Origin: Nemertoderma westbladi
Taxonomy: Eukaryota > Animalia > Xenacoelomorpha
Direction of reading: 5' to 3'
Assembly: GCA_032718475.1 (NCBI GenBank)
Contig: JAUCBJ010006616.1
Location: 27,891-91,890 of the forward strand
Length of the DNA stretch: 64,000 bases
Each line of letters starts with the position of its first letter. Position 1 is the stretch's first letter. The notes under the pieces are model-generated. The model was given only the letters and a program-made list of their open reading frames with translations, ran no database searches and was not told where the DNA came from. This document shows, in pieces, positions 1 to 61,223 of the stretch. A program made the position numbers and the translations under genes.

Positions 1-3000
1 GTTCCTTTAGAACAAGAAACTTCTCTGTACCCTGAAACGAAAACTATTTCTTCAGAATTAGACATTGCTGACAGATTTGAAATTCCAGTTGTGAAAGGTG
101 ACGCGTTAGAGACAACTTTACTTGAAGAAGAAACTGAACCAATTTCGGATTTGGAAAGTTGCATAGAAAAAGCACCTGTAACAGAACCTATTTCTCCCAC
201 TGAAGGGGCAATTTCCACCGGAGTTCCTACAATTGAAACACATGATGTTGAATCTGTGGTTGACATTGACGAAGTTGATGTGTGTGAAGCTGATGAAACA
301 GTAATTGACAAGACTTTACCAATGTATGAAGAATCAATGATGACCCCTATGTATTCAGAGATAGAAGTTGATACAAAACATGTTTCACAAGATGTTTCAA
401 CTGTCTCTGTTGTAATTAAGGAAGATATTGATATATTTGCAGAACAGTCAGAGTCTGTAGAGTACACTATTGATGTGAAAGATGACCAAATGTCTATGGA
501 GCAGGAGTCATCAATCATTAGATTACCTGAAGAAACTCAAATTGAGATTAAAGATGAATCAGTGTCTGAACTTCCTTTAGAAAAAGAAACTTCTCTGTAC
601 CCTGAAACGAAAACCATTTCTTCAGAATTAGACACTGCTGACAGATTTGAAATTCCAGTTGTGAAAGGTGACGCGTTAGAGACAACTTTACCTGAAGAAG
701 AAACTGAAACAATTTCTGATTTGGAAACTTACTTAGAAAAAGCTCCTGTAACTGAACCCATATCTTTCACTGAAGGTGTAATTTCATCCGGAGTTCCTAC
801 TGTCGAAACACATGATGTTGAATCTGTTGTTGACATTGACGAAGTTGATGTGTGTGAAGCTGATGAAACAGTAATTGACAAGACTTTACCAATGTATGAA
901 GAATCAATGATGACCCCTATGTATTCAGAGATAGAAGTTGATACAAAACATGTTTCACAAGATGTTTCAACTGTCTCTGTTGTAATTAAGGAAGATATTG
1001 ATATATTTGCAGAACAGTCAGAGTCTGTAGAGTACACTATTGATGTGAAAGATGACCAAATGTCTATGGAGCAGGAGTCATCAATCATTAGATTACCTGA
1101 AGAAACTCAAATTGAGATTAAAGATGAATCAGTGTCTGAACTTCCTTTAGAAAAAGAAACTTCTCTGTACCCTGAAACGAAAACCATTTCTTCAGAATTA
1201 GACACTGCTGACAGATTTGAAATTCCAGTTGTGAAAGGTGACGCGTTAGAGACAACTTTACCTGAAGAAGAAACTGAAACAATTTCTGATTTGGAAACTT
1301 ACTTAGAAAAAGCTCCTGTAACTGAACCCATATCTTTCACTGAAGGTGTAATTTCATCCGGAGTTCCTACTGTCGAAACACATGATGTTGAATCTGTTGT
1401 TGACATTGACGAAGTTGATGTGTGTGAAGCTGATGAAACAGTAATTGACAAGACTTTACCAATGTATGAAGAATCAACGGAGATCCCTATGTATTCAGAG
1501 GTAGAAGTTGATTCAAAAATAGTTTCAGAAGATGTATCAACTTTCTCTGTTGACATTAAGGAAGATATTGATATATTTGCAGAACAGTCAGAGTCTGTAG
1601 AGTACACAGTTGATGTGAAAGATGACCAAATGTCCATGGAGCAGGAGTCATCGATCATCAGATTACCCACTCAGTCTCAAATTGATATGAAGGATGAATC
1701 AGTGTCTGATATTCCTTTAGAACAAGAAACTTCTCTGTACCCTGAAACGAAAACTATTTCTTCAGAATTAGATGCTGCTGACAGATTTGAAATTCCAGTT
1801 GTGAAAGGTGACGCGTTAGAGACAACTTTACCTGAAGAAGAAACTGAAACAATTTCTGATTTGGAAACTTACTTAGAAAAAGCTCCTGTAACTGAACCCA
1901 TATCTTTCACTGAAGGTGTAATTTCATCCGGAGTTCCTACTGTCGAAACACATGATGTTGAATCTGTTGTTGACATTAACGAAGTTGATGTGTGTGAAGC
2001 TGATGAAACAGTAATTGACAAGACTTTACCAATGTATGAAGAATCAATGATGACCCCTATGTATTCAGAGATAGAAGTTGATACAAAACATGTTTCACAA
2101 GATGTTTCAACTGTCTCTGTTGTAATTAAGGAAGATATTGATATATTTGCAGAACAGTCAGAGTCTGTAGAGTACACAATTAATGTAAAAGATGACCAAA
2201 TGTCCATTGAGCAGGAGTCATCAATCATTAGATTACCCACTCAATCTCAAATTGATATGAAGGATGAATCATTGTCTGATGTTCCTTTAGAACAAGAAAC
2301 TTCTCTGTACCCTGAAACGAAAACTATTTCTTCAGAATTAGACATTGCTGACAGATTTGAAATTCCAGTTGTAAAAGGTGACGCGTTAGAGACAACTTTG
2401 CCTGAAGAAGAAACTGAACCAATTTCGGATTTGGAAAGTTACATAGAAAAAGCACCTGTAACAGAACCTATTTCTGCCACGGAAGGGGCAATTTCCACTG
2501 GAGTTCCTACAATTGAAACACATGATGTTGAATCTGTTGTTGACATTGACGAAGTTGATGTGTGTGAAGCTGATGAAACAGTAACTGACAAGACTTTACC
2601 AATGTATGAAGAATCAATGATGACCCTTATGTATTCAGAAGTAGAAGTTGATACAAAACATGTTTCACAAGATGTTTCAACTGTCTCTGTTGTAATTAAG
2701 GAAGATATTGATATATTTGCAGAACAGTCCGAGTCTGTAGAGTACACTATTGATGTGAAAGATGACCTAATGTCTATGGAGCAGGAGTCATCAATCATTA
2801 GATTACCTGAAGAAACTCAAATTGAGATTAAAGATGAATCACTGTCTGAACTTCCTTTAGAAAAAGAAACTTCTATGTATCCTGAATTGAAAACTATTTC
2901 TTCAGAATTAGATACTACTGACGGATTTGAAATACCAGTTGTGAAAGGTGATGCCCTAGAGACAACTTTATCTGAAGAAGGAACTGAAACAATTTCTGAT

Positions 3001-6000
3001 TTGGAAACTTACTTAGAAAAAGCACCTGTAACTGAACCCATATCTTTCACTGAAGGTGTAATTTCATCCGGAGTTCCTACTGTCGAAACACATGATGTTG
3101 AATCTGTTGTTGACATTGACAAAGTTGATGTGTGTGAAGCAGATGAAACAGTAACTGACAAGACTTTACAAATGTATGAAGAATCAACGGCGACCCCTAT
3201 GTATTCAGAGATAGAAGTTGATTCAAAAATAGTTTCAGAAGATGTATCAACTTTCTCTGTTGACATTAAGGAAGATATTGATATATTTGCAGAACAGTCA
3301 GAGTCTGTAGAGTACACAGTTGATGTGAAAGATGACCAAATGTCCATGGAGCAGGAGTCATCGATCATCAGATTACCCACTCAGTCTCAAATTGATATGA
3401 AGGATGAATCAGTGTCTGATGTTCCTTTAGAACAAGAAACTTCTGTGTACCCTGAAACGAAAACTATTTCTTCAGAATTAGACATTGCTGACAGATTTGA
3501 AATTCCAGTTGTAAAAGGTGACGCGTTAGAGACAACTTTACCTGAAGAAGAAACTGAACCAATTTCGGATTTGGAAAGTTACATAGAAAAAGCACCTGTA
3601 ACAGAACCTATTTCTGCCACTGAAGGGGCAATTTCCACTGGAGTTCCTACAATTGAAACACATGATGTTGAATCTGTTGTTGACATTGACAAAGTTGATG
3701 TGTGTGAAGCTGATGAAACAGTAACTGACAAGACTTTACCAATCTATGAAGAATCAATGATGACCCCTATGTATTCAGAGATAGAAGTTGATACAAAACA
3801 TGTTTCACAAGATGTTTCAACTGTCTCTGTTGTTATTAAGGAAGATATTGAAATATTTGCAGAACAGTCCGAGTCTGTAGAGTACACTATTGATGTGAAA
3901 GATGACCAAATGTCCATGGAGCAGGAGTCATCAATCATTAGATTACCCACTCAGTCTCAAATTGATATAAAGGATGAATCAGTGTCTGATGTTCCTTTAG
4001 AACAAGAAACTTCTCTGTACCCTGAAACGAAAACTATTTCTTCAGAATTAGACACTGCTTACAGATTTGAAATTCCAGTTGTAAAAGGTGACGCGTTAGA
4101 GATAACTTTACCTGAAGAAGAAACTGAACCAATTTCGGATTTGGAAAGTTACATAGAAAAAGCACCTGTAACAGAACCTATTTCTACCTCTGAAGGGGCA
4201 ATTTCCACTGGAGTTCCTACAATTGAAACACATGATGTTGAATCTGTTGTTGACATTGACGAAGTTGATGTGTGTGAAGCTGATGAAACAGTAACTGACA
4301 AGACTTTACCAATGTATGAAGAATCAATGATGACCCCTATGTATTCAGAGATAGAAGTTGATACAAAACATGTTTCACAAGATGTTTCAACTGTCTCTGT
4401 TGACATTAAGGAAGATATTGATATATTTGCAGAACAGTCAGAGTCTGTAGAGTACACAATTGATGTGAAAGATGACCAAATGTCCATGGAGCAGGATTCA
4501 TCAATCATTAGATTACCCACTCAGTCTCAAATTGATATGAAGGATGAATCAGTGTCTGGTGTTCCTTTAGAACAAGAAACTTCTCTGTACCCTGAAACGA
4601 AAACTATTTCTTCAGAATTAGACACTGCTGACAGATTTGAAATTCCAGTTGTGAAAGGTGACGCGTTAGAGACAACTTTACCTGAAGAAGAAACTGAACC
4701 AATTTCGGATTTGGAAAGTTACATAGAAAAAGCACCTGTAACTGAACCTATTTCTGCCACTGAAGGGGCAATTTCCACTGGAGTTCCTACAATTGAAACA
4801 CATGATGTTGAATCTGTTGTTGACATTGACGAAGTTGATGTGTGTGAAGCTGATGAAACAGTAACTGACAAGACTTTACCAATGTATGAAGAATCAATGA
4901 TGACCCCTATGTATTCAGAGATAGAAGTTGATACAAAACATGTTTCACAAGATGTTTCAACTGTCTCTGTTGTAATTAAGGAAGATATTGATATATTTGC
5001 AGAACAGTCAGAGTCTGTAGAGTACACAATTGATGTAAAAGATGACCAAATGTCCATGGAGCAGGAGGAGTCATCAATCATTAGATTACCCACTCAGTCT
5101 CTAATTGATATGAAGGATGAATCAGTGTCTGATGTTCCTTTAGAAGCAGAAACTTCTCTGTACCCTGAAACGAAAACTATTTCTTCAGAATTAGACATTG
5201 CTGACAGATTTGAAATTCCAGTTGTGAAAGGTGACGCGTTAGAGACAACTTTACCTGAAGAAGAAACTGAACCAATTTCGGATTTGGAAAGTTACATAGA
5301 AAAAGCACCTGTAACAGAACCTATTTCTGCCACTGAAGGGGCAATTTCCACTGGAGTTCCTACAATTGAAACACATGATGTTGAATCTGTTGTTGACATT
5401 GACGAAGTTGATGTGTGTGAAGCTGATGCAACAGTAACTGACAAGACTTTACCAATGTATGAAGAATCAATGATGACCCCTATGTATTCAGAGATAGAAG
5501 TTGATACAAAACATGTTTCACAAGATGTTTCAACTGTCTCTGTTGTAATTAAGGAAGATATTGATATATTTGCAGAACAGTCAGAGTCTGTAGAGTACAC
5601 AATTGATGTAAAAGATGACCAAATGTCCATGGAGCAGGAGTCATCAATCATTCGATTACCCACTCAGTCTCAAATTGATATGAAGGATGAATCAGTGTCT
5701 GATGTTCCTTTAGAACAAGAAACTTCTCTGTACCCTGAAACGAAAACTATTTCTTCAGAATTAGACATTGCTGACAGATTTGAAATTCCAGTTGTAAAAG
5801 GTGACGCGTTAGAGACAACTTTACCTGAAGAAGAAACTGAACCAATTTCGGATTTGGAAAGTTACATAGAAAAAGCACCTGTAACAGAACCTATTTCTGC
5901 CACTGAAGGGGCAATTTCCACTGGAGTTCCTACAATTGAAACACATGATGTTGAATCTGTTGTTGACATTGACGAAGTTGATGTGTGTGAAGCTGATGCA

Positions 6001-8877
6001 ACAGTAACTGACAAGACTTTACCAATGTATGAAGAATCAATGATGACCCCTATGTATTCAGAGATAGAAGTTGATACAAAACATGTTTCACAAGATGTTT
6101 CAACTGTCTCTGTTGTAATTAAGGAAGATATTGATATATTTGCAGAACAGTCAGAGTCTGTAGAGTACACAATTGATGTAAAAGATGACCAAATGTCCAT
6201 GGAGCAGGAGTCATCAATCATTCGATTACCCACTCAGTCTCAAATTGATATGAAGGATGAATCAGTGTCTGATGTTCCTTTAGAACAAGAAACTTCTCTG
6301 TACCCTGAAACGAAAACTATTTCTTCAGAATTAGACATTGCTGACAGATTTGAAATTCCAGTTGTGAAAGGTGACGCGTTAGAGACAACTTTACCTGAAG
6401 AAGAAACTGAACCAATTTCGGATTTGGAAAGTTACATAGAAAAAGCACCTGTAACAGAACCTATTTCTGCCACTGAAGGGGCAATTTCCACTGGAGTTCC
6501 TACAATTGAAACACATGATGTTGAATCTGTTGTTGACATTGACGAAGTTGATGTGTGTGAAGCTGATGAAACAGTAACTGACAAGACTTTACCAATGTAT
6601 GAAGAATCAATGATGACCCCTATGTATTCAGAGATAGAAGTTGATACAAAACATGTTTCACAAGATGTTTCAACTGTCTCTGTTGTTATTAAGGAAGATA
6701 TTGATATATTTGCAGAACAGTCAGAGTCTGTAGAGTACACAATTGATGTGAAAGATGACCAAATGTCCATGGAGCAGGAGTCATCAATCATTAGATTACC
6801 CACTCAGTCTCAAATTGATATGAAGGATGAATCAGTGTCTGATGTTCCTTTAGAACAAGAAACTTCTCTGTACCCTGAAACGAAAACTATTTCTTCAGAA
6901 TTAGACATTGCTGACAGATTTGAAATTCCAGTTGTGAAAGGTGACGCGTTAGAGACAACTTTACCTGAAGAAGAAACTGAACCAATTTCGGATTTGGAAA
7001 GTTACATAGAAAAAGCACCTGTAACAGAACCTATTTCTGCCACTGAAGGGGCAATTTCCACTGGAGTTCCTACAATTGAAACACATGATGTTGAATCTGT
7101 TGTTGACATTGACGAAGTTGATGTGTGTGAAGCTGATGAAACAGTAACTGACAAGACTTTACCAATCTATGAAGAATCAATGATGACCCCTATGTATTCA
7201 GAGATAGAAGTTGATACAAAACATGTTTCACAAGATGTTTCAACTGTCTCTGTTGTAATTAAGGAAGATATTGATATATTTGCAGAACAGTCAGAGTCTG
7301 TAGAGTACACAATTGATGTAAAAGATGACCAAATGTCCATGGAGCAGGAGTCATCAATCATTAGATTACCCACTCAGTCTCAAATTGATATGAAGGATGA
7401 ATCAGTGTCTGATGTTCCTTTAGAACAAGAAACTTCTCTGTACCCTGAAACGAAAACTATTTCTTCAGAATTAGACACTGCTGACAGATTTGAAATTCCA
7501 GTTGTAAAAGGTGACGCGTTAGAGATAACTTTACCTGAAGAAGAAACTGAACCAATTTCGGATTTGGAAAGTTACATAGAAAAAGCACCTGTAACAGAAC
7601 CTATTTCTACCTCTGAAGGGGCAATTTCCACTGGAGTTCCTACAATTGAAACACATGATGTTGAATCTGTTGTTGACATTGACGAAGTTGATGTGTGTGA
7701 AGCTGATGAAACAGTAACTGACAAGACTTTACCAATGTATGAAGAATCAATGATGACCCCTATGTATTCAGAGATAGAAGTTGATACAAAACATGTTTCA
7801 CAAGATGTTTCAACTGTCTCTGTTGTAATTAAGGAAGATATTGATATATTTGCAGAACAGTCAGAGTCTGTAGAGTACACAATTGATGTAAAAGATGACC
7901 AAATGTCCATGGAGCAGGAGTCATCAATCATTAGATTACCCACTCAGTCTCAAATTGATATGAAGGATGAATCAGTGTCTGATGTTCCTTTAGAACAAGA
8001 AACTTCTCTGTACCCTGAAACGAAAACTATTTCTTCAGAATTAGACACTGCTGACAGATTTGAAATTCCAGTTGTAAAAGGTGACGCGTTAGAGACAACT
8101 TTACCTGAAGAAGAAACTGAACCAATTTCGGATTTGGAAAGTTACATAGAAAAAGCACCTGTAACAGAACCTATTTCTGCCACTGAAGGGGCAATTTCCA
8201 CTGGAGTTCCTACAATTGAAACACATGATGTTGAATCTGTTGTTGACATTGACGAAGTTGATGTGTGTGAAGCTGATGAAACAGTAACTGACAAGACTTT
8301 ACCAATGTATGAAGAATCAATGATGACCCCTATGTATTCAGAGATAGAAGTTGATACAAAACATGTTTCACAAGATGTTTCAACTGTCTCTGTTGTAATT
8401 AAGGAAGATATTGATATATTTGCAGAACAGTCAGAGTCTGTAGAGTACACAATTGATGTAAAAGATGACCAAATGTCCATGGAGCAGGAGTCATCAATCA
8501 TTAGATTACCCACTCAGTCTCAAATTGATATGAAGGATGAATCAGTGTCTGATGTTCCTTTAGAACAAGAAACTTCTCTGTACCCTGAAACGAAAACTAT
8601 TTCTTCAGAATTAGACACTGCTGACAGATTTGAAATTCCAGTTGTGAAAGGTGACGCGTTAGAGACAACTTTACCTGAAGAAGAAACTGAACCAATTTCG
8701 GATTTGGAAAGTTACATAGAAAAAGCACCTGTAACAGAACCTATTTCTACCATTGAAGGGGCAATTTCCACTGGAGTTCCTACAATTGAAACACATGATG
8801 TTGAATCTGTTGTTGACATTGACGAAGTTGATGTGTGTGAAGCTGATGAAACAGTAACTGACAAGACTTTACAAATG
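1..8877 (+). CDS. Giant exon, segment 1 (5'-truncated): 190-aa acidic repeat region of a titin-like giant protein
   Basis: Frame 1 is open from base 1 (VPLEQETSLYPETK...); the listed start at 91 is a GTG inside a repeat. No stop occurs until the +1 insertion at about 8878. Confidence 0.9.
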
Positions 8878-9270
8878 ATATGAAGAATCAATGATGACCC
8901 CTATGTATTCAGAGATAGAAGGTGATACAAAACATGTTTCACAAGATGTATCAACTTTCTCTGTAGACATTAAGGAAGATATTGATATATTTGCAGAACA
9001 ATCAGAATCTGTAGAGTATACTATTGACATGAAAGATGACCAAATGTCAATAGAACAGGAGTCTACCGTCATCAGATTACCTGCAGAAGCAAAAACTGTC
9101 TTGGAGGATGATTCGGTTTTCGAACTTCCTCTAGAAACAGCAAATTTTATATTTCCTGAAACAAATATTATTTCCATTGCATTAAACACGGCTGATGAAC
9201 TTGGTCCTCCCATGGTAAAAGGGACTGGGCTGCAATTGAGTTTGTCTGATAGTGATACCGAGCCTATTCC
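1..9270 (+). repeat. Coding tandem array A1, 570-bp (190-aa) unit, about 16 copies
   Basis: The VKGDAL marker recurs at 91, 661, 1231 ... 4651, 5224 (+3 indel) ... 8644, with a diverged copy at 9215. Diagnostic motifs are LPTQSQIDMKDE and ETTLPEEE. Confidence 0.97.
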
Positions 9271-12200
9271 GCAATTGGGCTGTGTTCTTGAGGGAGCTAC
9301 TGCTGTGGGCCAGAAGTATTCTTCAGAAAGTTTTTTAACAAACCGCGTTGAGGTTGAAGGATTAGCATTAAATTCTGCTAGTGTTTTTAAAGATGCTCTT
9401 GTTTCAGTTTTGAATGACAAAACTTTCACATATTTAACCCTAAGTAGTGTGAGTGGAACCTATTTTGATCTTCCCACCGCCATCTCTGTGCCAGTGGAAG
9501 GAATTCCCATTCTATGTAGTATCATTGATAGTGGAGTAGATCATATACTAGAAGATAATGCAATGGCAGCTATTGTGACAGACGTTTGGCCTCTGGATAC
9601 ATACAATGTTATTGAAGATGTCTTGATACATCAGGAGTTGTTATATATTTTGCCTCAGGTTTTGGACGAATATATGTTTGAACTTACAAGTTTAGATGAT
9701 CAAGAAATTTTGCAAGAAACCTCAATAACTCGTGTAGCTAATATTCTTGCGTTGCAAAAGCAGTTGACTTGCATTGTTTATGGATTTCCTGAAGATAATT
9801 TTCCAGAATCATGTGACTCACCAATTGAAGTTTCATCTAGTCCCCTTATTGAAGCTGCCGATCTAATCGATTTTAAAACTTTGTCTTGTAATAAACTCAC
9901 AACTTCTTCCATTATTGAAGGTGTTGCCGAAAATATCCTGAATGCATGTGAAGACACGTTCTGTATAGATTATGAGATACTGCCATCTAATGTTGATGTA
10001 TCAATAGCTGATGCACCACAATTAACTGTAGAATCCTTTACACCTGTAGAACATGGCACAGGATTGGATACTCAAGTTGACGATGAAGACACAGTTTGCA
10101 AATTACCTGAAAACAATTATCAAGCTTCAGTATTGAATGTTGTCGGTGGTACTTGTAATGACATTTGTTCTGTATCTCCTGTTGTAGAAGGTACAGCCAT
10201 ACGTGATATCATAGAAGATAATAGTGTTGAAATGGATTCTGAAATTGTAGTTCCTATGGCCGCAACAACTATTGTTAATGTAGATATGCCAGTTGATGAT
10301 AGGTCTGTGCAAATAACAATTGTCAAAGGTGATGCCGTACAGTCAACTTTATCTGAAGAAGAAACTGAACCTATTTCCGATTTGGAACCTTCCATAGAAA
10401 AAGCACCCATAAGTGAACATATTTCTTCTACTGAGGGTGTAATTTTTACCAGTGCTCCTACAATTGAAACACATGATGTTGAATCTGTTGTTCAAATTGA
10501 CGAAGTTGATGTGTATGAAGCAGATGAAACAGTAACTGACAAGTTTTTACAAAAGTATGATGAATCAATCATAACCCCAATAGATTCAAACATAAATGTT
10601 GATACACAACTTGTATCTGAAGATGTATCAACTTTCTCTGTTGACATTAAAGAAGATATTGATGTATTTGCAAAACAGTCAGAATCTGTAGAGTACACAA
10701 TTGATGTGAAAGACGACCATATTTCAATCGAGCAGGAGTCATCAATCATTAGATTACCCGCAGAAAGTCAAATTGGGATTAAATATGAATCAATGTCTGA
10801 ACTTCCCTTAGAAGAAGATGCTTTGCTGTACCCTGAAGTGAAGACTATTTCTGCTGAATTAAACATTGCTGACAGATTTGATACTCCAGTTGTAAAAGGT
10901 GATGCGTTAGAGTCCACTTTATCTGAAGAAGAAACTGAACCAATTTCGGATTTGGAAAGTTACATAGAAAAAGCACCTGTAACTGAACCTATTTCTGCCA
11001 CTGAAGGGGCAATTTCCACTGGAGTTCCTACAATTGAAACACATGATATTGAATCTGTTGTTGACATTGACAAAGTTGATGGGTGTGAAGCTGATGAAAC
11101 AGTAACTGACAAGACTTTACAAATGTATGAAGAATCAACGGCGACCCCTATGTATTCAGATATAGAAGTTGATTCAAAAATAGTTTCACAAGATGTATCA
11201 AGTTTCTCTGTTGACATTAATGAAGATATTGATATATTTGCAGAACAGTCCGAGTCTATAGAGTACAATATTGATGTGAAGGATGATCAAATGTCTATAG
11301 AGCAGGTGTCATTAATTATCCAAATACCTGCAGAAACTCACAAAGCCATGAAGGATGAGTCAGTGTCTGCTCTTCCATTGGAAGAAGCACCATATTTGAG
11401 CCCAGAATCTGAGGCTATTTCTACAGAACTAGCTGAGGGAATTGATGCTCCGGTTGTAAAAGATGGTGACGCTTTACAATCAAAGCTATCTGAAGAAAAG
11501 ACTGAACCAATTTTGGATTTGGAAAATATCTTAGAACAAGCATCTAATACTGCACCTATTTCATTTTCTGAAAAGGTTATTTCCTCTGGTGTACCTACTA
11601 CTGGAACAGTTGGTGAAGAATCTGTTGTTGACATTGACGATGTTGAAATAAGTGAATCTGATGCCACAAAATTGGACAAGTCTTTACAGAGTTATGATGA
11701 ATCACCAACGTATCCTTTGGATTCTAAGATTGAATTTGAAACAAAACTTGTTTCGCAAGATGTTTCAACTGTCAATGTTGAGATTAAGGACGATATTGAC
11801 ACATTTGCAGAACAGTCCGAGTCTATAGAGTACACTATTGATGTGAAGGATGATCAAATGTCTATAGAGCAGGAGTCATTAATTATCCAAATACCTGCAG
11901 AAACACAAATAGACATGAAGGATGTGTCAGAGTCTGCTCTTCCATTGGAAGAAGCACCATATTTGAGCCCAGAATCTGAGACTATTTCTACAGAACTAGC
12001 TGAGGGAATTGAAACTCCAGTTGTAAAAGATGGTGAGGCTTTACAATCAAAGCTATCTGAAGAAAAGACTGAACCAATTTTAGATTTGGAAAATCTCTTA
12101 GAACAAGCATCTAATACTGCACCTATTTCATTTTCTGAAAAGGTTATTTCCTCTGGTGTACCTACTACTGGAACAGTTGGTGTAGAATCTGTTGTTGACA

Positions 12201-15200
12201 TCGACGATGTTGAAATAAGTGAAGCTGATGCCACAATATTGGACAAGTCTTTACAGAGTTATGAAGAATCAACAACTTCACCTTTGGATTCTAAGATTGA
12301 ATTTGAAACAAAACTTGTTTCGCAAGATGTTTCAACAGTCCATGTTGAGATTAAGGACGATATTGACACATTTGCTGAACAGTCCGAGTTTATAGAGTAC
12401 AATATTGATGTGAAGGATGATCAAATGTTTATAGAGCAGGATTCATTAATTATCCAAATACCTGCAGAAACTCAAATAGACATGAAGGATGAGTCAGAGT
12501 CTGCTCTTCCATTGAAAGAAGCACCGTGTTTGAGCCCAGAATCTGAGGCTATTTCAACAGAACTAGCTGAGGGAATTGAAACTCCAGTTGTAAAAGATGG
12601 TGACGCTTTACAATCAAAGCTATCTGAAGAAAAGTCTGAACCAATTTTAGATTTGGAAAATCTCTTAGAACAAGCATCTAATACTGCACCTATTTCATTT
12701 TCTGAAAAAGTTGTTTCCACTGAAGTTCCAACTGTTGGAACACTTGATGATGAATCTGTTGTTGACATTGACGATGTTGAAATATGTGAAGCTGATACCA
12801 CAAAATTGGACAAGTCTTTACAGAGTTATGAAGAATCAACAACTTCACCTTTGGATTCTAAGATTGAATTGGAAACAAAACTTGTTTCGCAAGATGTTTC
12901 AACAGTCCATGTTGAGATTAAGGACGATATTGACAAATTCGCAGAACAGTCCGAGTCTATAGAGTACAATATTGATGTGAAGGATGATCAAATGTCTATA
13001 GAGCAGGAGTCATTAATTATCCAAATACCTGCAGATACTCAAATAGACATGAAGGATGAGTCAGAGTTTGATCTTCCTTTGAAAGAAGCACCGTATTTGA
13101 GCCCAGAATCTGAGACTATTTCTACAGAACTAGCTGAGGGAATTGATGCTCCGGTTGTAAAAGATGGTGACGCTTTACAATCAAAGCTATCTGAAGAAAA
13201 GACTGAACCAATTTTAGATTTGGAAAATCTCTTAGAACAAGCACCTATCACTGAACCTATTTCATTTTCTGAAAAGGTTATTTCTTCTGGTGTACCTACT
13301 ACTGGAACAGTTGGTGTAGAATCTGTTGTTGACATCGACGATGTTGAAATAAGTGAAGCTGATGCCACAATATTGGACAAGAAGAGTTATGAAGAATCAA
13401 CAACTTATCCTTTGGATTCTAAGATTGAATTTGAAACAAAACGTGTTTCGCAAGATGTTTCAACAGTCCATGTTGAGATTAAGGACGATATTGACACATT
13501 TGCTGAACAGTCCGAGTCTATAGAGTACACTATTGATGTGAAGGATGATCAAATGTCTATAGAGCAGGAGTCATTAATTATCCAAATACCTGCAGATACT
13601 CAAATAGACACGAAGGATGAGTCAGTGTCTGCTCTTCCATTGGAAGAAGCACCATATTTGAGCCCAGAATCTGAGACTATTTCTACAGAACTATCTGATG
13701 GAATTGAAACTCCAGTTGTAAAAGATGGTGACGCTTTACAATCACAACTATCTGATGAAAAGACCGAATCAATTTTAGATTTGGAAAATCTCTTAGAACA
13801 AGCACCTATCACTGAACCTATTTCATTTTCTGAAAAAGTTGTTTCCACTGAAGTTCCAACTGTTGGAACACTTGATGATGAATCTGTTGTTGACATTGAC
13901 GATGTTGAAATATGTGAAGGTGATACCACAAAATTGGACAAGTCTTTACAGAGTTATGATGAATCAACAACTTCACCTTTGGATTCTAAGATTGAATTTG
14001 AAACAAAACTTGTTTCGCAAGATGTTTCAACAGTCCATATTGAGATTAAGGATGATATTGACAAATTTGCAGAACAGTCCGAGTCCATAGAGTACACTAT
14101 TGATGTGAAGGATGATCAAATGTCTATAGAGCAGGAGTCATTAATTATCCAAATACCTGCAGATACTCAAATAGACATGAAGGATGAGTCAGAGTCTGAT
14201 CTTCCATTGAAAGGAGCACCATATTTGAGCCCAGAATCTGAGACTATTTCTACAGAACTAGCTGTGGGAATTGAAACTCCAATTGTAAACGATGGTGACG
14301 CTTTACAATCACAGCTATCTGAAGAAAAGACTGAACCAATTTTAGATTTGGAAAATCTCTTAGAACAAGCACCTATCACTGAACCTATTTCATTTTCTGA
14401 AAAGGTTATTTCCTCTGGTGTACCTACTACTGGAACAGTTGGTGTAGAATCTGTTGTTGACATCGACGATGTTGAAATAAGTGAAGCTGATGCCACAATA
14501 TTGGACAAGAAGAGTTATGAAGAATCAACAACTTATCCTTTGGATTCTAAGATTGAATTTGAAACAAAACGTGTTTCGCAAGATGTTTCAACAGTCCATG
14601 TTGAGATTAAGGACGATATTGACACATTTGCTGAACAGTCCGAGTCTATAGAGTACACTATTGATGTGAAGGATGATCAAATGTCTATAGAGCAGGAGTC
14701 ATTAATTATCCAAATACCTGCAGATACTCAAATAGACACGAAGGATGAGTCAGTGTCTGCTCTTCCATTGGAAGAAGCACCATATTTGAGCCCAGAATCT
14801 GAGACTATTTCTACAGAACTATCTGATGGAATTGAAACTCCAGTTGTAAAAGATGGTGACGCTTTACAATCACAACTATCTGATGAAAAGACCGAATCAA
14901 TTTTAGATTTGGAAAATCTCTTAGAACAAGCACCTATCACTGAACCTATTTCATTTTCTGAAAAAGTTGTTTCCACTGAAGTTCCAACTGTTGGAACACT
15001 TGATGATGAATCTGTTGTTGACATTGACGATGTTGAAATATGTGAAGGTGATACCACAAAATTGGACAAGTCTTTACAGAGTTATGATGAATCAACAACT
15101 TCACCTTTGGATTCTAAGATTGAATTTGAAACAAAACTTGTTTCGCAAGATGTTTCAACAGTCCATATTGAGATTAAGGATGATATTGACAAATTTGCAG

Positions 15201-48200: not shown

Positions 48201-51200
48201 CCTACTGAAGCAACATGTGCGCAGACAACATGTGAACTTGTTCACTATATTGATGCTGAAGTATTGGATATTTTGGGTAATGTGCAACTTCATCGTACAC
48301 TTTCAGATGAAATTCATGATGAGGTGCAGTTTGCGGATAGTACCGGGGTATTTGTGGTTGAGGTTGGCTCCCCACAATTGGAAATGAAGCAAAAAAAGCC
48401 ACTTATTTCGATGGATATAGTTCCATATGAGCCTGAATATTATTCTTTGAATTTGTTAACTATTTATGACAAGATGATTAATGAAATTATTTATGATATT
48501 GCCATTACTGTTATTGAAGAATTGAAATATATTAGGCCACTTGTTGCTGAGATTGTTACAATTGAAGAGCCTCCCGACGAAGAACCAGATTTAATTAAGG
48601 ATGGTTTAAAATTGAATATTACAATTCTTGACAATATTAGTGTTGAATCTAGTATGTCACCAATTTCCTTACCAAATTCCCCAGAAAATGAATTTGAAGA
48701 TATTCCACTGGAAACTGTTATTATCCAAAGCTGCACACAGAATAACTATAGGGTGGAAGTATTATCACCAATATTGGTATCTAAGTTACAATCAATGAGA
48801 CGTGATAATGAGAGTTCAGGTACTGAATCTCCTTTCAGTATTAGCAGTATGGGAGAGTTAGCTGAGTATTTAAGTAATGGCATTTTGAGTGATGTTTTTT
48901 CACCTATATATCCACAATCATATGATAATATTATTGAAGAAACGGAAGATATACATTCTTGTAATGTTCAGGTAGTTTCGAGCGTTTCTCATGGCACTCC
49001 ATTACAGGGTATGGCAAAATGTTCTTCTACAACAACACAAGGATTTGGAAATCTCGAAGTTAGTAATATGGATGAGCATTCCAGCATCACCATTATAAAC
49101 CATCAGTTACAACATCCGTCTACAAGTTTCGAACTCAGCCAATTAGTGCATCACAAGACACATTTGCCATTCAAGGAAGGAGTGGCAACAGAACTAGTCA
49201 ATGTCGCGACTGTTCCTTCTCCAGAAGAGTTTGTTGATAACATACCCCTTTCTAAATGTTTCTGTAGAACAGAAGTAAATATGGCAGATAACCTACCATG
49301 TACGAACTCTGTGAAACAGATGGGTATGCCTGATGAATTGTATGAATCTATTGATGAAATGGCTGTCAATGTGAATGTTAAATCTGGTCATGTAACTTCT
49401 GCAATCAAGAGAAACAATTTAGATCAATGTACCCCGATTGTCCATACAAATGTTACTGAGGGCTTTGCTTGTGATGAGACACTATCATCTGATGAGGAAA
49501 CCGCGAATATCAGTTCGCTTGGTAATCGACCTGTAGTTTCGAGTCTTTCTCGGGAAGTATCATCTTTGGGTACTCAGCTGCAGCAAACATGTCCAATAGA
49601 GGGACTTCCTAAGTGTGAATCATATGAAATAGAGGATGCGCTTGAGACTCTTACAACAAGCAGTGAAGTTCTGCAGATGGCAAGCGAGTCTTTGGAGTAT
49701 GATAATATGTATCAATCTAGCTTGGCGAAAGCTGTTGCAGGTGGATTTCCAGAAGTTAATCAACAGGTATGGAGGGAAACGACCAAAATGCAATCATTTC
49801 CAACTCAATCTTTAATAGCTGGAGTGTCGTTAAACAAATCTTGTTTGCAGTCATCGAATTTAGAATATTGCACAACACACGGATTTGGTAAAGTAGACAG
49901 TGGTGAGCCGTGTGAAGTGATATTTGAAGATGAAAAAGGTTCAACTTCGCTTGCATCCTCAAATATTGAAGGTATCCATCTGGTAAGGCCATTGGTAAAC
50001 ACTGATGTGGTTAATGGCTTGGCAGAGATAGAGACAACGTCAGATGATTTTGTGACATGTGAAAAATCTATCCTGGAGGAAAGTTTATACTCAGCTAAAC
50101 AATGCAAGGAAGATCAGAGTACAATGAATGTGAAAGCACGCTCTGTATTAGTTGAAGGAAAGGGCGCTGTAGGGCTTCTGAATGCTCTTGATTCTGAAGC
50201 ACCTCCATTATTAGCAAGTGTAAGAAATCATTTTGCTCAACCTGCTGATATAGTAAGGTCAGAATTGAACTTTGCTAGAGCTATTGGTAACTGTATTTCT
50301 GGAATACCAAAATATGAACATTATTTGGCTACAGAAATGCCTATATATGGAATTCCTCATTTGAGAAAGGAGTATGCTTCTGTTGATAAACTCGCATTCC
50401 CTTCAAAGATGTCCATTACCACTGCCAACCCCATGACCCAAGAATGCATGGGAAGAGAAGATGTTACAGATTTGAACGACTCCATTAGTTATGTTTCTAA
50501 GATTAATGATGTTGTTTGTCAAAGTGTTTCTTCTAGCAACGTAACAGCCTTAAGAGAAAATGCCATCCAAGTTGCTCCTGTTGTGTCAGTTAGTAACAAG
50601 AGTTTTCACTCGATAATCAAACGTCAAGCTATACGCGAGAAACCAATTTTTATTAGTTACAAAGATCATAAATGGGAATTAAATGGTGAGTCATGTGCTG
50701 ATGATGTAAAGGAAGTAATGGGTCATGTGCCCGTCACAAAGCTAATTACACAGTATGAACACTTTCAGGCTCCTCCTATGTTTATTTCAGAACTTCCACA
50801 AGATCCTGTTGTAGTTGACATAGGTTCTCCTCTTGAAATCTCCGCCCATGTCATTGGCACTCCTGATACAAAGGTGGTTTGGATGAAAAAAGGAGAAATT
50901 GTCAAAAGTGGAGTTACTTGCGATGTCTCTCTTGAGTCATCAATACATACAAAATTGTTAATTAAAGATTCGGATGAATCTGATTCAGGTGAATATGAAT
51001 GTCATGCTTATTCATCGGAAGGTGAAGATGTGTTGTCCACTGTAATTCATATGGACCAGAGGCACCATGTCAAATCGGTGTCAGTTGGAGATTCTCCTAA
51101 AAAAGTACTTGTTGGTGAAGCCTTACCTAAAACAAAGGTTTTTAAAATGATTAGTAACCTATTCCATGTGTTAGTTGAAGAACAAAAGGTGATGAGGGCT

Positions 51201-54200: not shown

Positions 54201-57200
54201 ACAATGCATGGGAGAAGTCAAACAGAAATTGTAGGTAACGATTGTGATTCCAATGAGCTTTTCCATGATGTTCATGATAAAGCGGGAAGGGCTCTGGGCA
54301 TTTCCCAAGAATTATTAACAACAGTGCCAGCTGAAACAGTTGTTTTAATGGCACCCAATGTTGAAGATAATATACCTCGAACAGATTTATTGCAAACCAC
54401 CATGGAATGGTCTGTTAGCAGCACAAAAGTATCTACTTGTATGGGTGTGGTAGATGAAGAAGGGCATGATATTGACTTGGGAGTTATTGAGCAGTTTGTA
54501 GCAGAAGCAGCTGTCCCCGTGTTGGAAACAATAAATGTTGTTTATGAGGAGAAATATTCTAATGTAGTTCTATGTCAACCAGTAGTTAGTGAAAGGGCCA
54601 TCGCCAGCAGTGAACCATCTGATTTGATACAACTGCCACATCTATTGCAAGTTGCAACATGCTATTATTTTCCAGATGACACTACCATAGAGTTAATCAA
54701 TACACACGGATGCAATGGCACATGTGTAGCAGCAACATCCACAGAGGAAGAATTTGTTCTTGCTATTACTTGTTCCGTTGTCTTATCGTTTTATGGTCTT
54801 GTTTTTGACGTTGATGACAGTAAACTTTCTGATGTTGGTGACACAGATGATGATAGTGATCATGAAGATAAACATGCAACCAAGGATGATACTCGAATTA
54901 TTTCTGAAGCAACATATAGGGACATCGATCGAATAGCGACGGATATATTGCATGTCGCTATGCAGGAAGTGGTAGAATATAGTCCTTCTGAGGGTCGGGA
55001 AGTAGACCATAAAGTTCCCCTTGATTCAACAGTCAATGTCGTTATGGTTATCGATGAAGAAATTATTCACGATTCGTCTGTCGCGGACAAAACAATTTCA
55101 TTGGAATTTTTTCCTCTCGATACCAGTATTGATAATGCTTTGAACTATGCTATGCTTAATGACATACCGGTTGAAAATGTAGCTGATAACATGCATGATA
55201 CTCGATATGAGGGTGAGTTTTGTTTTGAAGAAGATTTAGATATTGCTGTCATTACCATACCTCCGAACATTTTACTGTTACCAGTTATGGAGACATTACC
55301 AGAACTATCAGCTGTTATCCAAACTGATGTGCCACAACTAGTTGCTGAAACTGTGGAAATGGTATCGGATGAATTACTCACAGTTATTAATGACAAGGCT
55401 CTTGAGGATCTAGGACCGAAAGATTCAGAATTGGATGTAATTATGGTTGTTGATGAAGAAATTATTGAAGACAATGCGGTCTCTGATCAGAAAATTCCTT
55501 TGGAGTTTATTCCCATAGATAATATTGTTGATGTTGAACAAATTTATTTAAACTATGCTGTGCTTAATGACATACCGGTTGAAAATGTAGCTGATGACAT
55601 GCATGATACTCGATATGGGGGTGAGTTTTGTTTTGAAGATGATTTAGATATTGCTGTCATTACCATACCTCCGAATATTTTACTGTTACCAGATATGGAG
55701 ACATTACCAGAACTATCAGCTGTTATCCAAACTGATGTGCAACAACTAGTTTCTGATACTGCGGAGATGGTATCTGATGATTTACTCACAGTTATTAATG
55801 GCAAGACTCTAGAGGATCTAGAATCGAAAGATACAGTATTGGATGTAATTATGGTTGTTGATGAAGAAATTATTGAAGACAATGCGGTCTCTGATCAGAA
55901 AATTCCGTTGGAGTTTATTCCCATAGATAATATTGTTGATGTTGAACAAAGTTATTTAAACTATGCTGTGCTTAATGATATACCGGTTGAAAATGTAGCT
56001 GATAACATGCATGATACTCGATACGGGGGTGAGTTTTGTTTTGAAGAAGATTTAGATATTGCTGTCATTACCATACCTCCGAAAATTTTGATGTTACCAG
56101 ATATGGAGACATTACCAGAACTATCAGCTGTTATCCAAACTGATGTGCCACAACTAGTTGCTGATACTGTGGAGATGGTTTCGGATGAATTACTCACAGT
56201 TATTAATGACGAGGCTCTTGAGGATCTAGGACCGAAAGATTCAGAATTGGATGTAATTATGGTTGTTGATGAAGAAATTATTGAAGACAATGCGGTCTCT
56301 GATCAGAAAATTCCTTTGGAGTTTATTCCCATAGATAATATTGTTGATGTTGAACAAAGTTATTTAAACTATGCTATGCTTAATGACATACCAGTTGAAA
56401 ATGTAGCTGATAACATGCATGATACTCGATACGGGGGTGAGTTTTGTTTTGAAGAAGATTTAGATATTGCTGTCATTACCATACCTCCGAAAATGTTGAT
56501 GTTACCAGATATGGAGACATTACCAGAACTATCAGCTGTTATCCAAACTGATGTGCCACAACTAGTTGCTGAAACTGTGGAGATGGTTTCGGATGAATTA
56601 CTCACAGTTATTAATGACGAGGCTCTTGAGGATCTAGGACCGAAAGATTCAGAATTGGATGTAATTATGGTTGTTGATGAAGAAATTATTGAAGACAATG
56701 CGGTCTCTGATCAGAAAATTCCTTTGGAGTTTATTCCCATAGATAATATTGTTGATGTTGAACAAAGTTATTTAAACTATGCTGTGCTCAATGACATACC
56801 AGTTGAAAATGTAGCTGATAACATGCATGATACTCGATACGGGGGTGAGTTTTGTTTTGAAGAAGATTTAGATATTGCTGTCATTACCATACCTCCAAAT
56901 ATTTTGCTGTTACCAGATATGGAGACATTACCAGAACTATCAGCTGTTATCCAAACTGATGTGCCACAACTAGTTGCTGATACTGTGGAGATGGTTTCGG
57001 ATGAATTACTCACAGTTATTAATGACGAGGCTCTTGAGGATCTAGGACCGAAAGATTCAGAATTGGATGTAATTATGGTTGTTGATGAAGAAATTATTGA
57101 AGACAATGCGGTCTCTGATCAGAAAATTCCTTTGGAGTTTATCCCCATAGATAATATTGTTGATGTTGAACAAAGTTATTTAAACTATGCTATGCTTAAT

Positions 57201-60200
57201 GACATACCAGTTGAAAATGTAGCTGATAACATGCATGATACTCGATACGGGGGTGAGTTTTGTTTTGAAGAAGATTTAGATATTGCTGTCATTACCATAC
57301 CTCCGAAAATTTTGATGTTACCAGATATGGAGACATTACCAGAACTATCAGCTGTTATCCAAACTGATGTGCCACAACTAGTAGCTGATACTGTGGAGAT
57401 GGTTTCGGATGAATTACTCACAGTTATTAATGACGAGGCTCTTGAGGATCTAGGACCGAAAGATTCAGAATTGGATGTAATTATGGTTGTTGATGAAGAA
57501 ATTATTGAAGACAATGCGGTCTCTGATCAGAAAATTCCTTTGGAGTTTATTCCCATAGATAATATTGTTGATGTTGAACAAAGTTATTTAAACTATGCTG
57601 TGCTCAATGACATACCAGTTGAAAATGTAGCTGATAACATGCATGATACTCGATACGGGGGTGAGTTTTGTTTTGAAGAAGATTTAGATATTGCTGTCAT
57701 TACCATACCTCCAAATATTTTGCTGTTACCAGATATGGAGACATTACCAGAACTATCAGCTGTTATCCAAACTGATGTGCCACAACTAGTTGCTGATACT
57801 GTGGAGATGGTTTCGGATGAATTACTCACAGTTATTAATGACGAGGCTCTTCAGGATCTAGGACCGAAAGATTCAGAATTGGATGTAATTATGGTTGTTG
57901 ATGAAGAAATTATTGAAGACAATGCGGTCTCTGATCAGAATATCCCCTTGGAGTGTGTTCCAATCGACACTAGCGTTGATTTTGATCCATGTTATATTAA
58001 GTACGCTTTGATTAATGACATTTTGATTGAAAATGTGACGTATATTGACATGGTACGTGATATTCGGTACGGAATGGAACTTTCCATTACAGAAGATTTA
58101 GTTGCAGTTGCAATTCCTCCAATTGTTTTTCAATCGCTTTGTGTTTTTGATTCAGAAGCAAAAGATATTGGGGATGTTGTTTCTAGTGCGACATTCATTG
58201 ATTTAATAATAAATCCTGAATTAGTCTCTTTTGAAGATGAGTTACTTGAAGAAGTTCGTTCTGCACTAATTGTAGAACAAATTATGAAGTTTGCTTATGA
58301 AAGTTTGGCCGATACACCAGTAAGTGGAGTTTCTGATACTAATCTTAATGCGATAACAGAATATGCCAACAATCTTAGTGCTGCAATAATTCTCGTTGTT
58401 TACGAAGATATTGTTAAGATAACTGATAAGCTAACATTTCCGCATGTTGGAGACATTAGCTATATGGGCCATGTTTGGGAAAGTACAGATGATATTGAAT
58501 GCAATGTTGCGGAACAACCATTGGCCAATATTTCCGAAAATGAATTATCATTTGGAAAAACCTCACAAGAAGACATTCCTGTAACTTTTGGTTTCGGAAT
58601 TTCCGAATCAGTCCATTCATCTTCCATTAGCGATGACATTTATTGTGAAAATGAAGTGGCTGAAGTCACTTCCTTGCCAAACATCAATGTATTAGACGGT
58701 TTTTCTGAAGTTGTTTCTACTTCTTCTCTGGTCTGGTCTGGTCTTCCTGTTGAAAAGGTATTGAGTAGTGATGACGAGGCAAAGTCGCTACATTCTGTTG
58801 TGGTAGAATATCATACAGCATCATATACAGATGCTGTTAAAACAAAGTGCAGCGAAATGGCTACGGTATCACCGGGTATTCCGTTTGTAAAGGAGATGCC
58901 TTATGAGATAATCAAGACTAAAGTAGTTTCCCCATCTTGCGGTTATGATATAATAATTTTTGACGAAGTTGAAGAAATAGAAGTTTTGAGAGCAGCAGTC
59001 ACTCCTCCGAGGATCATCTTCCATGCAGTTGAGAGTTTTAATACAGATGAATTTGCTGTTCGTATACCATCCCCAGATGATGTTAAACAATTTACTTATG
59101 CAGATATTGCGCAATCTTTTATGGAAGATGAAATTGTCATTACGTCATTTGAGGAGGATGAACGTATCGAAGTCTTGCTGGAGATGGTACACCCCAGAAC
59201 GGAATTTGACAGGGTACAATATGGGAAACAGCCATTTGAAATTATTGAAGGCCCAATCACTGGAACCTCTGATACGGCTATTATAATGAAAGAGGCTGGT
59301 AGCCTTCTTGAAAGGGAAGTAATCAATTCCTTGCCTTTGTCAGTTTATGTAGAATCTGCTTTGTCACATTGCTCCGATGTGATCAACATTGCCATTGAAA
59401 AGGAACAGAAAACGATTGATTTATGCGAAAAGCTTGACTCCAATTCTATATTTTTAGAATTAGCCAGTACTGACTCAGAACCCTCAACTGAGCCTCATGC
59501 CATCAATCCCAATCAAACGTATAAGAATGTTTGTGATTCCCGCCAGTGTGTTTTGACTGATGCCGGATTTATTGGAAAATTGGGACAATTTCCTGAGCCC
59601 ATTACCGATGATATGGCTAAGTCCATGGTGAGCGATAGACTAGCTATTGACGGACAGACCAACTCCGATTCTGATGTTGAGTTTTATGTGGTTGACTCGG
59701 CATCACCTGATTCCGTATTGAGCACTGATTTCTCAGAAAACGAAGTCGAAATTATAAATATATCTCCCGTATTAGGACGTAGACCGAGATCTGATTCCGA
59801 ATCACAAGTTAAGCAACTACCCCATTTGGATTCTTCCGCCAATGATTCAGCACCAGGTTATCATGACTCACCTTTAACGAAATGGTCCGATAATGTTCCC
59901 ATGACATGTGCCGTGGATGCCCCACCTGCTATTGTAATCGGTTCCCCTTGTCCAGCCGCCATGGCCCTTCATAAGCGTTTCATTCCACTTAATTTAACAG
60001 AATCTGTTTTAAACAAAGCGATATATGCCCGGTCTACGAGGACTTCGAGACAGCGATACTACAGTCGTTCTCAAACTACAGCTTATTCATCTTCGTCAAG
60101 CTCCATGTCAAGCTCTCCTGAAACGAAAAAGAAATCGTTTGTTTCTGAGGTCGATTCAAGAAGGAAACCTCTTGATGACAGCGTATATTTAGGACCGTTT

Positions 60201-61223
60201 TCAACTGTGGAAAATACAATTCTTCAAAAGAGGAAAGATGTTCGAAGGCGATGCTCTACTGGACGATTGTCGATATGTTTGGATATGACTAAGACAGAGA
60301 GTATTGAAAGTCGAACTCAAAAACTAGGCCGTTTGACAGAAAATTTGTTACGAGACTTTGGCTCTGAAAAACCGCGCCTAAATTATGGTGCCACTGTTGT
60401 TATTCCACCATCGGCTGACATTGAGAATTTTGCATTCGAGGATTCCAAAGAGTCTCCAGTTACATGTCGAGTTTCATTACAACCACTGCATTCTACTGAT
60501 GGCCTCGTCGTTTTAAGTTACGACGAGATCAAGGAGTATAGGGTGCTCATCTGCGACGAGGATGCGGTTGAAGAAGCCTTGTGGCACAACTCCGTGATAA
60601 AGATGACACCGACGAGGAGACACAAGAACGTTGATGTTTGTTTGGACAACGAAACGGTAGTTGTTCGCCCAAAGATGAGAAAAAGGGTTCGTTTTAAGGA
60701 TGTGCATGAGGAACGGCCAATATCATTTTATGAAACAGACTTGAGCAGTTTACAATGGGTCGATGATGACACGGAATCGTCGCAGGATGAAAGCTTCCCG
60801 ATTTGGGAGCGGAGACTCGGAGGGTTTGAGGAAGTAGGCGAGCGACAGGAATATTATGTCGAGGATTTGTCCTCATCTTCTTCGGACAGCTCTCCTATGG
60901 GCTCCATCGATGACCTCAGTTCGATTCATGTCCCAAGATTCAGCGATGAGGATTCGAGTAGTTCCTCCTCGGTTCGGAGTATCGAGAGATTGCGCGCGGC
61001 GTCGACGACCACGGTATTCGAGATGTCGGACCGTCGATGCGAACCGGATCGCGTCGTCGAGGAGGAGGGCGAGGTCTGTCTCGAGATGGACGCAGTCACA
61101 GACGACACAAAGTGTCGGTACTGGAAGCCCGGACAACCGCGACACGTACAGATGACCTTCACTGTGGACGACTTCAAAACAACCAAGTCGATTGAGGACC
61201 AGATATTGGAGGAACTAAAAGAG
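19482..61223 (+). CDS. Giant exon, segment 3: B repeats, Ig1, U', A2 repeats, unique acidic region with Ig2, C repeats, basic tail; ends at a splice donor
   Basis: 41.7 kb without a stop, including more than 8 kb of non-repetitive AT-rich sequence. Ends AAA GAG|GTGGGT (phase 0); the listed stop at 61230-61232 lies inside the intron. Confidence 0.9.
30609..30897 (+). other. I-set immunoglobulin domain 1 (inside the giant exon)
   Basis: PMFIIPL...ASPPVSIQWFKDD...LYIENVSYDDAGSYSCRASNTYG carries the PxF, WxK, DxGxYxC and NxxG hallmarks of titin-type intracellular I-set domains. Confidence 0.92.
31000..32040 (+). repeat. About 2 A-type units (one with a 48-bp in-frame deletion) between Ig1 and U'
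   Basis: Markers at about 31101 and about 31623 are 522 bp apart (570 minus 48). Confidence 0.85.
32039..33308 (+). repeat. Spacer block U, copy 2
   Basis: Near-identical to 9061-10330 (e.g. TDVWPLDTYNVIEDVLIHQELLYILPQ), with scattered substitutions and no net indel. Confidence 0.93.
33300..46790 (+). repeat. Coding tandem array A2, 570-bp (190-aa) unit, about 24 copies
   Basis: Marker at 33300, 33870 ... 36720, 37296 (+6 indel) ... 46416. Diagnostic motifs are LPAESQIEIKDESM and ESTLSEEE. Confidence 0.97.
50772..51053 (+). other. I-set immunoglobulin domain 2 (inside the giant exon)
   Basis: PPMFISEL...AHVIGTPDTKVVWMKKG...LLIKDSDESDSGEYECHAYSSEG. Confidence 0.92.
55030..58060 (+). repeat. 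Coding tandem array C, 408-bp (136-aa) unit, about 7.4 copies
   Basis: The NYA(M/V)LNDIPVENVAD marker occurs at 55143, 55551, 55959, 56367, 56775, 57183 and 57591, with a diverged copy at about 57999. Confidence 0.96.

Follow-up and report, generated by a model that had tools for sequence, protein, structure and literature searches.

A coding stretch of at least 61 kb, probably one exon, in a giant immunoglobulin-domain protein gene of Nemertoderma westbladi

Results

The giant coding stretch

The window analyzed here, a 64,000-nt stretch of the Nemertoderma westbladi genome, contains part of a gene that encodes a giant protein with immunoglobulin (Ig) domains: a coding stretch that fills the first 61 kb, followed by two small introns and two small exons (Table 1). 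The 5' end of the giant stretch lies upstream of base 1, and only the downstream introns are inside the window. On the forward strand, open frames extend over positions 1-8880 (frame 1), 8879-19495 (frame 2), and 19476-61229 (frame 3), the last of which comprises 13,918 codons (41.7 kb) without any correction, compared to a longest stop-free run of 168 codons in 20 shuffles of positions 1-61223. An open-frame scan of the window detected no open run of 600 nt or more in the other frames or on the reverse strand. When read across two single extra bases (8878 and 19479), the stretch encodes 20,407 codons, with a net charge of -0.17 to -0.21 per residue, and ends at the donor GTGGGT located directly after 61223, beyond which both downstream exons keep the frame without a stop. 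A first-pass annotation, made from the letters alone, had described a coding run up to a donor at 61223, with 41.7 kb free of stops as it stands and a contribution of more than 2 MDa to the protein. The frame is indeed open from base 1 apart from the two extra bases, and the computed mass of the encoded stretch is ~2.25 MDa.

The whole stretch is coding, as claimed in the first-pass annotation, and is under purifying selection, as borne out by stop avoidance, an excess of synonymous variants, and length changes in whole codons. For the unique parts, log10 P of being stop-free by chance is -89.5, -29.4, -13.0, and -7.9. For the repeats, we compared 70 units of modal length (13 from array A, 30 from B, 21 from C, and 6 from D, with other lengths excluded), which differ by 437 distinct variants. 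Among these, 135 are synonymous, against 94 expected and a maximum of 122 in 2,000 permutations, and none is a real stop, against ~26 expected and a permutation minimum of 12; the single apparent stop reads TAT in the units where it occurs. The synonymous excess has P values of <0.001, 0.05, 0.006, and 0.03 in arrays A, B, C, and D, respectively, which are approximate because variants are common by descent. Where the spacing between repeat anchors departs from the mode, it does so by multiples of three in seven of nine cases, the other two being the frame breaks. The composition of codon positions stays level across 1-59 kb and differs from that of the true introns, which contain 9-25 stops per frame. 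A second sample, represented by both X2 and X3 among the runs introduced below, provides independent alleles in 46965-54813: half of the 26 taken from the differences listed (40 of 189) are synonymous, compared to an expected fraction of 0.215 (p 0.0013), and none is a stop. In the same sample, a joint in run X3 at 59202-59466 skips 263 nt and places two letters between the ends, a net change of 261 nt (87 codons) that is likely an in-frame deletion allele.

Splicing at the 3' end

Four runs (X1, X2, X3, and X5) were compared with positions 44001-64000. A 1,640-nt contig of X5 covers 59943-61223, continues with the 62016 exon and then with the 63206 exon, and skips both introns at GT..AG borders, whereas DNA contigs of X1 and X2 continue through the donor into the first intron. 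Because X5 skips an intron into which X1 and X2 continue, we read it as RNA. The giant stretch is, therefore, not only real and selected but also spliced at its 3' end, and the predicted junction between 61223 and 62016 is confirmed. Given that every interval is stop-free and selected, all parts would be translated in some isoform, and given that no intron-like gap separates any two of them, we infer one exon. Thus, from the earlier claim of a single 61-kb exon, the continuity of 59943-61223 and splicing at 61223 are observed in X5, and the unity of the remainder is what we infer; the ordinary flanking introns of ~0.8 kb that were described along with it are found downstream, the upstream flank being outside the window.

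Elsewhere, X5 has no contigs over 46669-50670 and 51338-59341 and short ones at 50676-50891, at 59616-59929, and in the repeats at 44.7-46.2 kb. None of this was used as evidence, because holes are uninformative and a contig of repeat sequence may derive from any of the copies or from carried-over DNA. A loose end of X5 at 50942 was rejected as a chance match: it is not preceded by AG, and its letters include a stop in frame. The start of one X5 contig coincides with that of the 63206 exon (63204-63206), where the X5 contigs listed explain all the depth of this run, so that the break does not stem from intron sequence; this is a weak hint that a second upstream partner may join 63206, skipping the giant exon and the 62016 exon.

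Repeat anatomy and the downstream region

Repeat arrays make up ~75% of the giant stretch. A unit of 189 or 190 aa recurs at 76 anchors in three arrays (A at 1-9.0, B at 11.3-30.1, and C at 33.3-46.8 kb), with ~95% identity within each array, 89% between A and C, and ~76% between B and either of the others. The 136-aa unit of array D shows no similarity to the 190-aa unit. A block of ~3 kb at 8160-11300, consisting of repeat units and a spacer, is duplicated at 31140-34300 with an offset of 22,978 nt, and therefore the stretch has probably grown by block duplication as well as by unit slippage. The second copy of the spacer, at ~32037-33308, is 97% identical to the first and more constrained than the arrays, with a ratio of non-synonymous to synonymous variation (pN/pS) of 0.35. 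An unbiased 14-mer self-comparison of the unique parts gave only a slight excess of pairs at score 30 (92, compared to 59-79 in shuffles).

Table 1. Features in the 64,000-nt window of Nemertoderma westbladi, with positions counted from the first base of the window.
Feature	Position	Strand	Basis
Giant coding stretch, probable single exon, net charge about -0.18 per residue	1..61223	+	Open frame; splicing from the 3' donor in X5
Array A: acidic repeat of 190 aa (570 nt), 95% identical on average; 15 complete units between anchors, preceded by a partial one	1..8992	+	
Break 1: one extra A, outside any homopolymer	8878..8878	+	Comparison with sister units
Spacer 1, 424 aa, first 80 aa a decayed repeat	9059..10330	+	
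Two transitional units followed by array B: repeat of 189 aa (567 nt) in 32-33 units, 96% identical on average	10330..30062	+	
Break 2: one extra C beside an A	19479..19479	+	Comparison with sister units
Unique island holding Ig1	30201..31010	+	
Ig1, I-set domain	30600..30899	+	Pfam PF07679, E 3.6e-14; best PDB match titin 3b43
About 1.5 570-nt units plus spacer 2 (copy of spacer 1)	31140..33308	+	
Array C: repeat of 570 nt, 95% identical on average; 22 complete units between anchors and partial ones at the ends	33295..46780	+	
Unique coding region, ~2,740 aa	46800..55022	+	Gap-free X1 DNA contig, long second-sample contigs
Ig2, I-set domain	50766..51053	+	Pfam PF07679, E 4.5e-12; best PDB match titin 3b43
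Array D: repeat of 136 aa (408 nt) in 7.1 copies with 96% matches	55139..58021	+	
Unique 3' end, 1,058 aa	58050..61223	+	59943-61223 in spliced X5 contig
Intron, 792 nt, GT..AG, phase 0	61224..62015	+	X5 joint and frame
Exon (331 nt) encoding Ig3 (I-set)	62016..62346	+	Pfam PF07679, E 1e-10; X5 joints
Intron, 859 nt, GT..AG	62347..63205	+	X5 joint and frame
Exon (293 nt): Ser/Arg-rich linker and first 36 residues of Ig4; then donor GTTAGT	63206..63498	+	

The GC content at third codon positions is ~0.25 over the first 59 kb. Within 57600-63500, it then increases gradually, reaching 0.67 at the donor, and both small exons have values of 0.60-0.64. The second intron carries a 54-nt tandem repeat (2.9 copies, 63001-63156), each copy of which ends in an acceptor-like site. 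In all runs, 61600-61900, 62500-62620, and 63500-64000 stand out by a very high summed depth and numerous loose ends, which mark dispersed repeats inside the introns, probably small transposons.

The two frame breaks

The first-pass annotation had flagged two suspect single-base insertions. Both are single extra bases relative to the sister units, with an error signature at 19479 only. In the column of break 2, sister units carry either A (18 units) or C (12 units), a polymorphism of this kind being found in only 2.8% of the columns, and the unit is 99.8% identical to the one located two units away. Because both sister alleles stand side by side, as in a consensus of mixed reads, break 2 is likely a merge of two repeat variants. 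The same explanation was rejected for break 1, where the extra A is no sister allele: neither the 34 sister units compared nor the paralogous block located 22,978 nt downstream contain it, and the unit has 10 further differences from its nearest sister. Judging from these comparisons, break 1 may be either an error or a recent real mutation. A sequence scan found no short GT..AG intron that would remove either break.

Ig domains and gene identity

The window encodes four I-set Ig domains that are not in tandem, two of them among the 20,407 residues of the giant stretch; Ig1-3 score above the Pfam cut-off, and Ig4, of which the first third is present, scores below it. The Pfam scan covered eight segments, the remaining parts being more copies of the scanned units. 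Three of the four domains lack the B-strand cysteine, a loss that is frequent in intracellular I-set domains. Titin 3b43 ranks second in PDB for Ig3, although its rankings, including those in Table 1, are inflated by multi-domain chains. Homologue searches with the Ig domains retrieved MLCK, obscurin, UNC-89, and titin-like proteins at 25-36% identity, and HMMER over 1.84 billion representatives gave 1,835 matches, the best 150 of which are 23-35% identical. Against a set of 159 Ig-giant proteins, identity over a single full domain reached ~41%, and titin-like, UNC-89, and unnamed proteins come out almost level in their best summed Ig scores. The names of the 10 top proteins looked up among these 159 include titin, titin-like, UNC-89, and uncharacterized, and the sources are nematodes, a hemichordate, a crinoid, a seisonid rotifer relative, a bat, and lampreys. 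Thus, the earlier designation of a titin-like gene holds as regards titin-type I-set domains, and the gene may be a titin, an obscurin/UNC-89, or another Ig giant: the matches to titin, obscurin, and UNC-89 are only generic, and titin-like is a fair label for the superfamily.

Pfam identified no SH3-DH-PH cassette, the hallmark of obscurin/UNC-89, in the 64-kb window and no ankyrin, ZU5, UPA, or death domain in the eight segments scanned. It likewise detected no VWD, CysD, or SEA domain there, and P+T+S amounts to 24-27%, which is not the make-up of a mucin central exon. Matches of the repeats to NOD and domains of unknown function were discarded, as no stretch passed. The last 477 aa have no homologue among 7,976 candidates, and ESM Atlas returned no usable match for either the 190-aa unit or these 477 aa.

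Three 14-residue motifs resembling amphipathic helices lie at 48858, 51306, and 52953, and presumably are similar to PKA-anchoring (AKAP) helices. A pattern defined by eye, post hoc, from these motifs and the crinoid unc-89-like protein P0007 occurs three times in the window compared to 0.03 times per shuffle and, among the 159 Ig giants, only in two isoforms of that crinoid gene. Eight candidate 40-mers gave no RII-binding (AKAP) match in Pfam at E up to 10, and a literature search found no AKAP consensus.

Composition of the spacer

Asp+Glu make up 24-28% of the 190-aa units, which the charge-hydropathy line places among disordered sequences. S+E amounts to 24.5-27%, and S, E, T, D, K, and P together account for 55-57% of the 190-aa units and 41-46% of the unique parts. 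AlphaFold2 models of two-unit stretches had a mean predicted local distance difference test score of 30.3 for the 190-aa unit (23 sequences) and 28.7 for the 136-aa unit (6 sequences), and are uninformative because the alignments are so shallow.

Discussion

With moderate confidence, we favor the reading that the stretch is one exon, at least 61 kb long and included alternatively, which would insert a long, acidic, probably disordered spacer into a muscle protein of the titin/obscurin family. The exon probably grew by unequal crossing-over and conversion of the 190-aa unit and by one duplication of a multi-kb block, always in whole codons. The two extra bases are probably assembly errors or very recent mutations. 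The acidic repeats, with a charge of about -0.2 per residue, might be a ruler or a spring extended by its charge, with the sparse Ig domains as anchors, and inclusion or skipping of the giant exon might set the length or stiffness of the filament by tissue. Such a role is suggested by analogy with the PEVK region of Sallimus and the Ank2-XL array. Flight-muscle isoforms of Sallimus lack long PEVK stretches that softer muscles with long I-bands contain (PMC9886281), and the Ank2-XL repeat array has been proposed to be a molecular spacer (PMC5135030). Only tentatively would we go further and envisage one exon well in excess of 61 kb that is spliced and translated as a unit and is the longest in any cytoskeletal or muscle gene, a new non-PEVK acidic spring of more than 2.2 MDa with several PKA-anchoring-like helices, an obscurin/titin-family protein that rivals or exceeds vertebrate titin in mass, and exon definition without a practical limit near 30 kb.

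Several observations weigh against the reading that we favor. RNA continuity is seen for 1.3 kb (59943-61223) of the 61 kb and comes from one run of one study, X5, which is labelled 'DNA?', has no recorded library, and was included by its species label only. The comparison with reads was limited to 44001-64000, so that both breaks were judged from the sequence of sister units, and break 1 carries no error signature. Selection on amino acids is weak in the arrays, with pN/pS of 0.52 (A), 0.79 (B), and 0.74 (C). The charge-hydropathy line places the 136-aa unit and the unique parts among compact sequences, and the term disordered is, therefore, best kept for the 190-aa arrays. P+E+V+K accounts for only 32-36% of the repeats, which accordingly are not PEVK, and for 26-28% of the unique parts; in true PEVK, this fraction is ~70%. 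There is no orthologue among the 159 proteins and in the homologue searches, where Ig matches are 23-41% identical and the non-Ig parts match nothing. Finally, the acceptor-like sites at 60000, 59457, 52262, and 26301 match the true acceptors in strength, and because such sites inside the frame equal the true ones, internal splicing is possible on sequence grounds.

Accordingly, the entire stretch could be coding and yet be split by internal splice sites, such that no mRNA carries 61 kb as one exon and isoforms enter at internal acceptors (at ~59.4-60.0 kb or before Ig2) or drop blocks. Six acceptor-like sites (59343, 59457, 60000, 50589, 50790, and 30576) are all in one phase, and each of the seven units of array D carries a strong donor-like GGTGAGT (55213-57661) that is closer to the consensus than the true donor at 61224. 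Furthermore, alternative splicing is more common in large exons (PMC3467050), and the X5 contig that starts exactly at the 63206 exon, with no X5 contig in the preceding intron, is a weak hint in this direction. Nevertheless, stop-free frame and selection extend through every interval, with no intron-like gap between the parts; X5 crosses the site at 60000 unspliced, its contig starts listed (59616, 59943, and 50676) are not preceded by AG, and no internal joint of X5 is among the joints listed (15 of 37). We regard internal splitting of the stretch as unlikely. Less likely still is that one or both extra bases are real, creating a truncating allele (with a stop at 8881 or 19496) that is tolerated through skipping of the exon or through an intact second allele. 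This possibility is favored by the properties of break 1, which is outside a homopolymer, matches no sister allele, and lies in a unit that differs from its nearest sister at 10 further sites. However, stop avoidance is equal on both sides of each break, and a real break would, therefore, be very recent; break 2, furthermore, places the two sister alleles next to each other in one of the rare polymorphic columns of a nearly duplicate unit.

A true length well below 61 kb, with a real exon and arrays over-expanded by assembly, seems quite improbable to us. It is true that most of the stretch is tandem repeat of ~95% identity, that array B contains at least one consensus-type error, and that a few units are identical. 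Of the 64 modal-length units in arrays A-C, however, 60 are distinct and four pairs are identical; 197 variants occur in one unit each and respect the frame, and the longest exact internal repeat is 1,144 nt. Without the arrays, ~15 kb of non-array frame would be left, 8.6 kb of it in one gap-free contig: a single X1 contig spans 46604-55193 with no difference from the window (X1 may be the source of the assembly), and most of this interval is covered by the independent second sample, with no gap in the contigs listed. Thus, gross over-expansion is argued against, and a few units more or less may be present. Summed contig depth was dropped as a gauge of copy number because its ratios were inconsistent among X1, X2, and X3. 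At 57911-61709, X1 contigs have half the depth seen at 46604-55193 (31 compared to 61), as might be expected if two divergent haplotypes were present at the 3' end of the exon. Finally, the arrays might be a non-coding macrosatellite in a large intron, with a frame that is open by chance. The pN/pS of arrays B and C is near 1, and concerted evolution is able to keep a frame open, but real stops are absent where ~26 are expected, lengths change in whole codons, and the frame of the arrays continues into unique sequence that encodes intact Ig domains and leads to a donor in use. The macrosatellite explanation is close to refuted.

Under models of exon definition, very long internal exons are hard to splice, and a selected exon of 42 to more than 61 kb next to introns of 0.8 kb would be a test case for a spliceosome that passes over dozens of acceptor-like sites spread across tens of kb. 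In the field of muscle, it adds a non-PEVK sequence that may serve as a spring or ruler. Annotation misses megadalton isoforms of this kind, given that one or two consensus errors in repeats suffice to split a gene. For PKZILLA, coverage by poly(A) RNA sequencing was seen to be lost ~10 kb from the 3' end (bioRxiv 2024.01.29.577497).

Among known proteins, invertebrate titins (Drosophila Sallimus, C. elegans TTN-1, and crayfish I-connectin) combine I-set Ig domains with long acidic low-complexity spacers, as is the case here (PMC9886281). They are on the same ~2-MDa scale (2,100 kDa for the longest Sls and 2 MDa for TTN-1), and some of their isoforms omit long spacers (PMC9886281). Unlike in these proteins, more than 2.2 MDa come here from one reading stretch with two Ig domains only, and unlike in PEVK, the spacer is rich in Asp, Glu, Ser, Thr, Val, and Ile. 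The tandem Ig arrays, Fn3 domains, and C-terminal kinase of the titin family could lie in other parts of the gene, the 64 kb in view encoding four Ig domains that are not in tandem. Obscurin/UNC-89, in particular the crinoid unc-89-like proteins P0007 and P0008, has similarly sparse Ig domains and long unique linkers; P0007 and P0008 are among the better matches of Ig3 and Ig4 and have the motif pattern in common with the N. westbladi protein, but their Ig identity, 29-39%, is no better than that of other titins among the 159 proteins.

The long exons of giant ankyrins, such as Drosophila Ank2-XL, resemble the present one in being lineage-specific and very long, and in containing repeat arrays with a Ser/Glu bias (PMC5135030). 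Their composition, with S+E of ~25% and S, E, T, D, K, and P above 55% (PMC5135030), is matched by the 190-aa arrays and not by the unique parts. They average 8.1 kb with units of 36-228 bp (PMC5135030), compared to at least 41.7-61 kb and 408-570-bp units here, and the host gene here, unlike those of ankyrins, encodes I-set Ig domains, the downstream exons included.

The record exons likewise are tens of kb long, and most of them consist of tandem repeats. The largest exon of human TTN is 17,106 bp (PMC12198301), exon 3 of MUC16, the largest human internal exon, exceeds 21 kb (>21,000 nt) (PMC3467050), and the longest Drosophila exon known as of 2012 is 27.7 kb (PMC3563967), in line with the first-pass annotation, which called well-known giant exons much shorter. 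Spider AgSp1 is 42,270 bp, in two similar exons (PMC6553539), and PKZILLA-1 occupies a 137-kb locus with 17 exons, one of which could be large (bioRxiv 2024.01.29.577497). No coding exon above 27.7 kb was found in a literature search that missed most subscription papers and annotation databases. Relative to 27.7 kb, the error-free 41.7-kb frame is 1.5 times as long and the 61-kb reading 2.2 times. Giant repeat exons of cytoskeletal proteins are a known kind, of which the N. westbladi stretch would be an extreme example.

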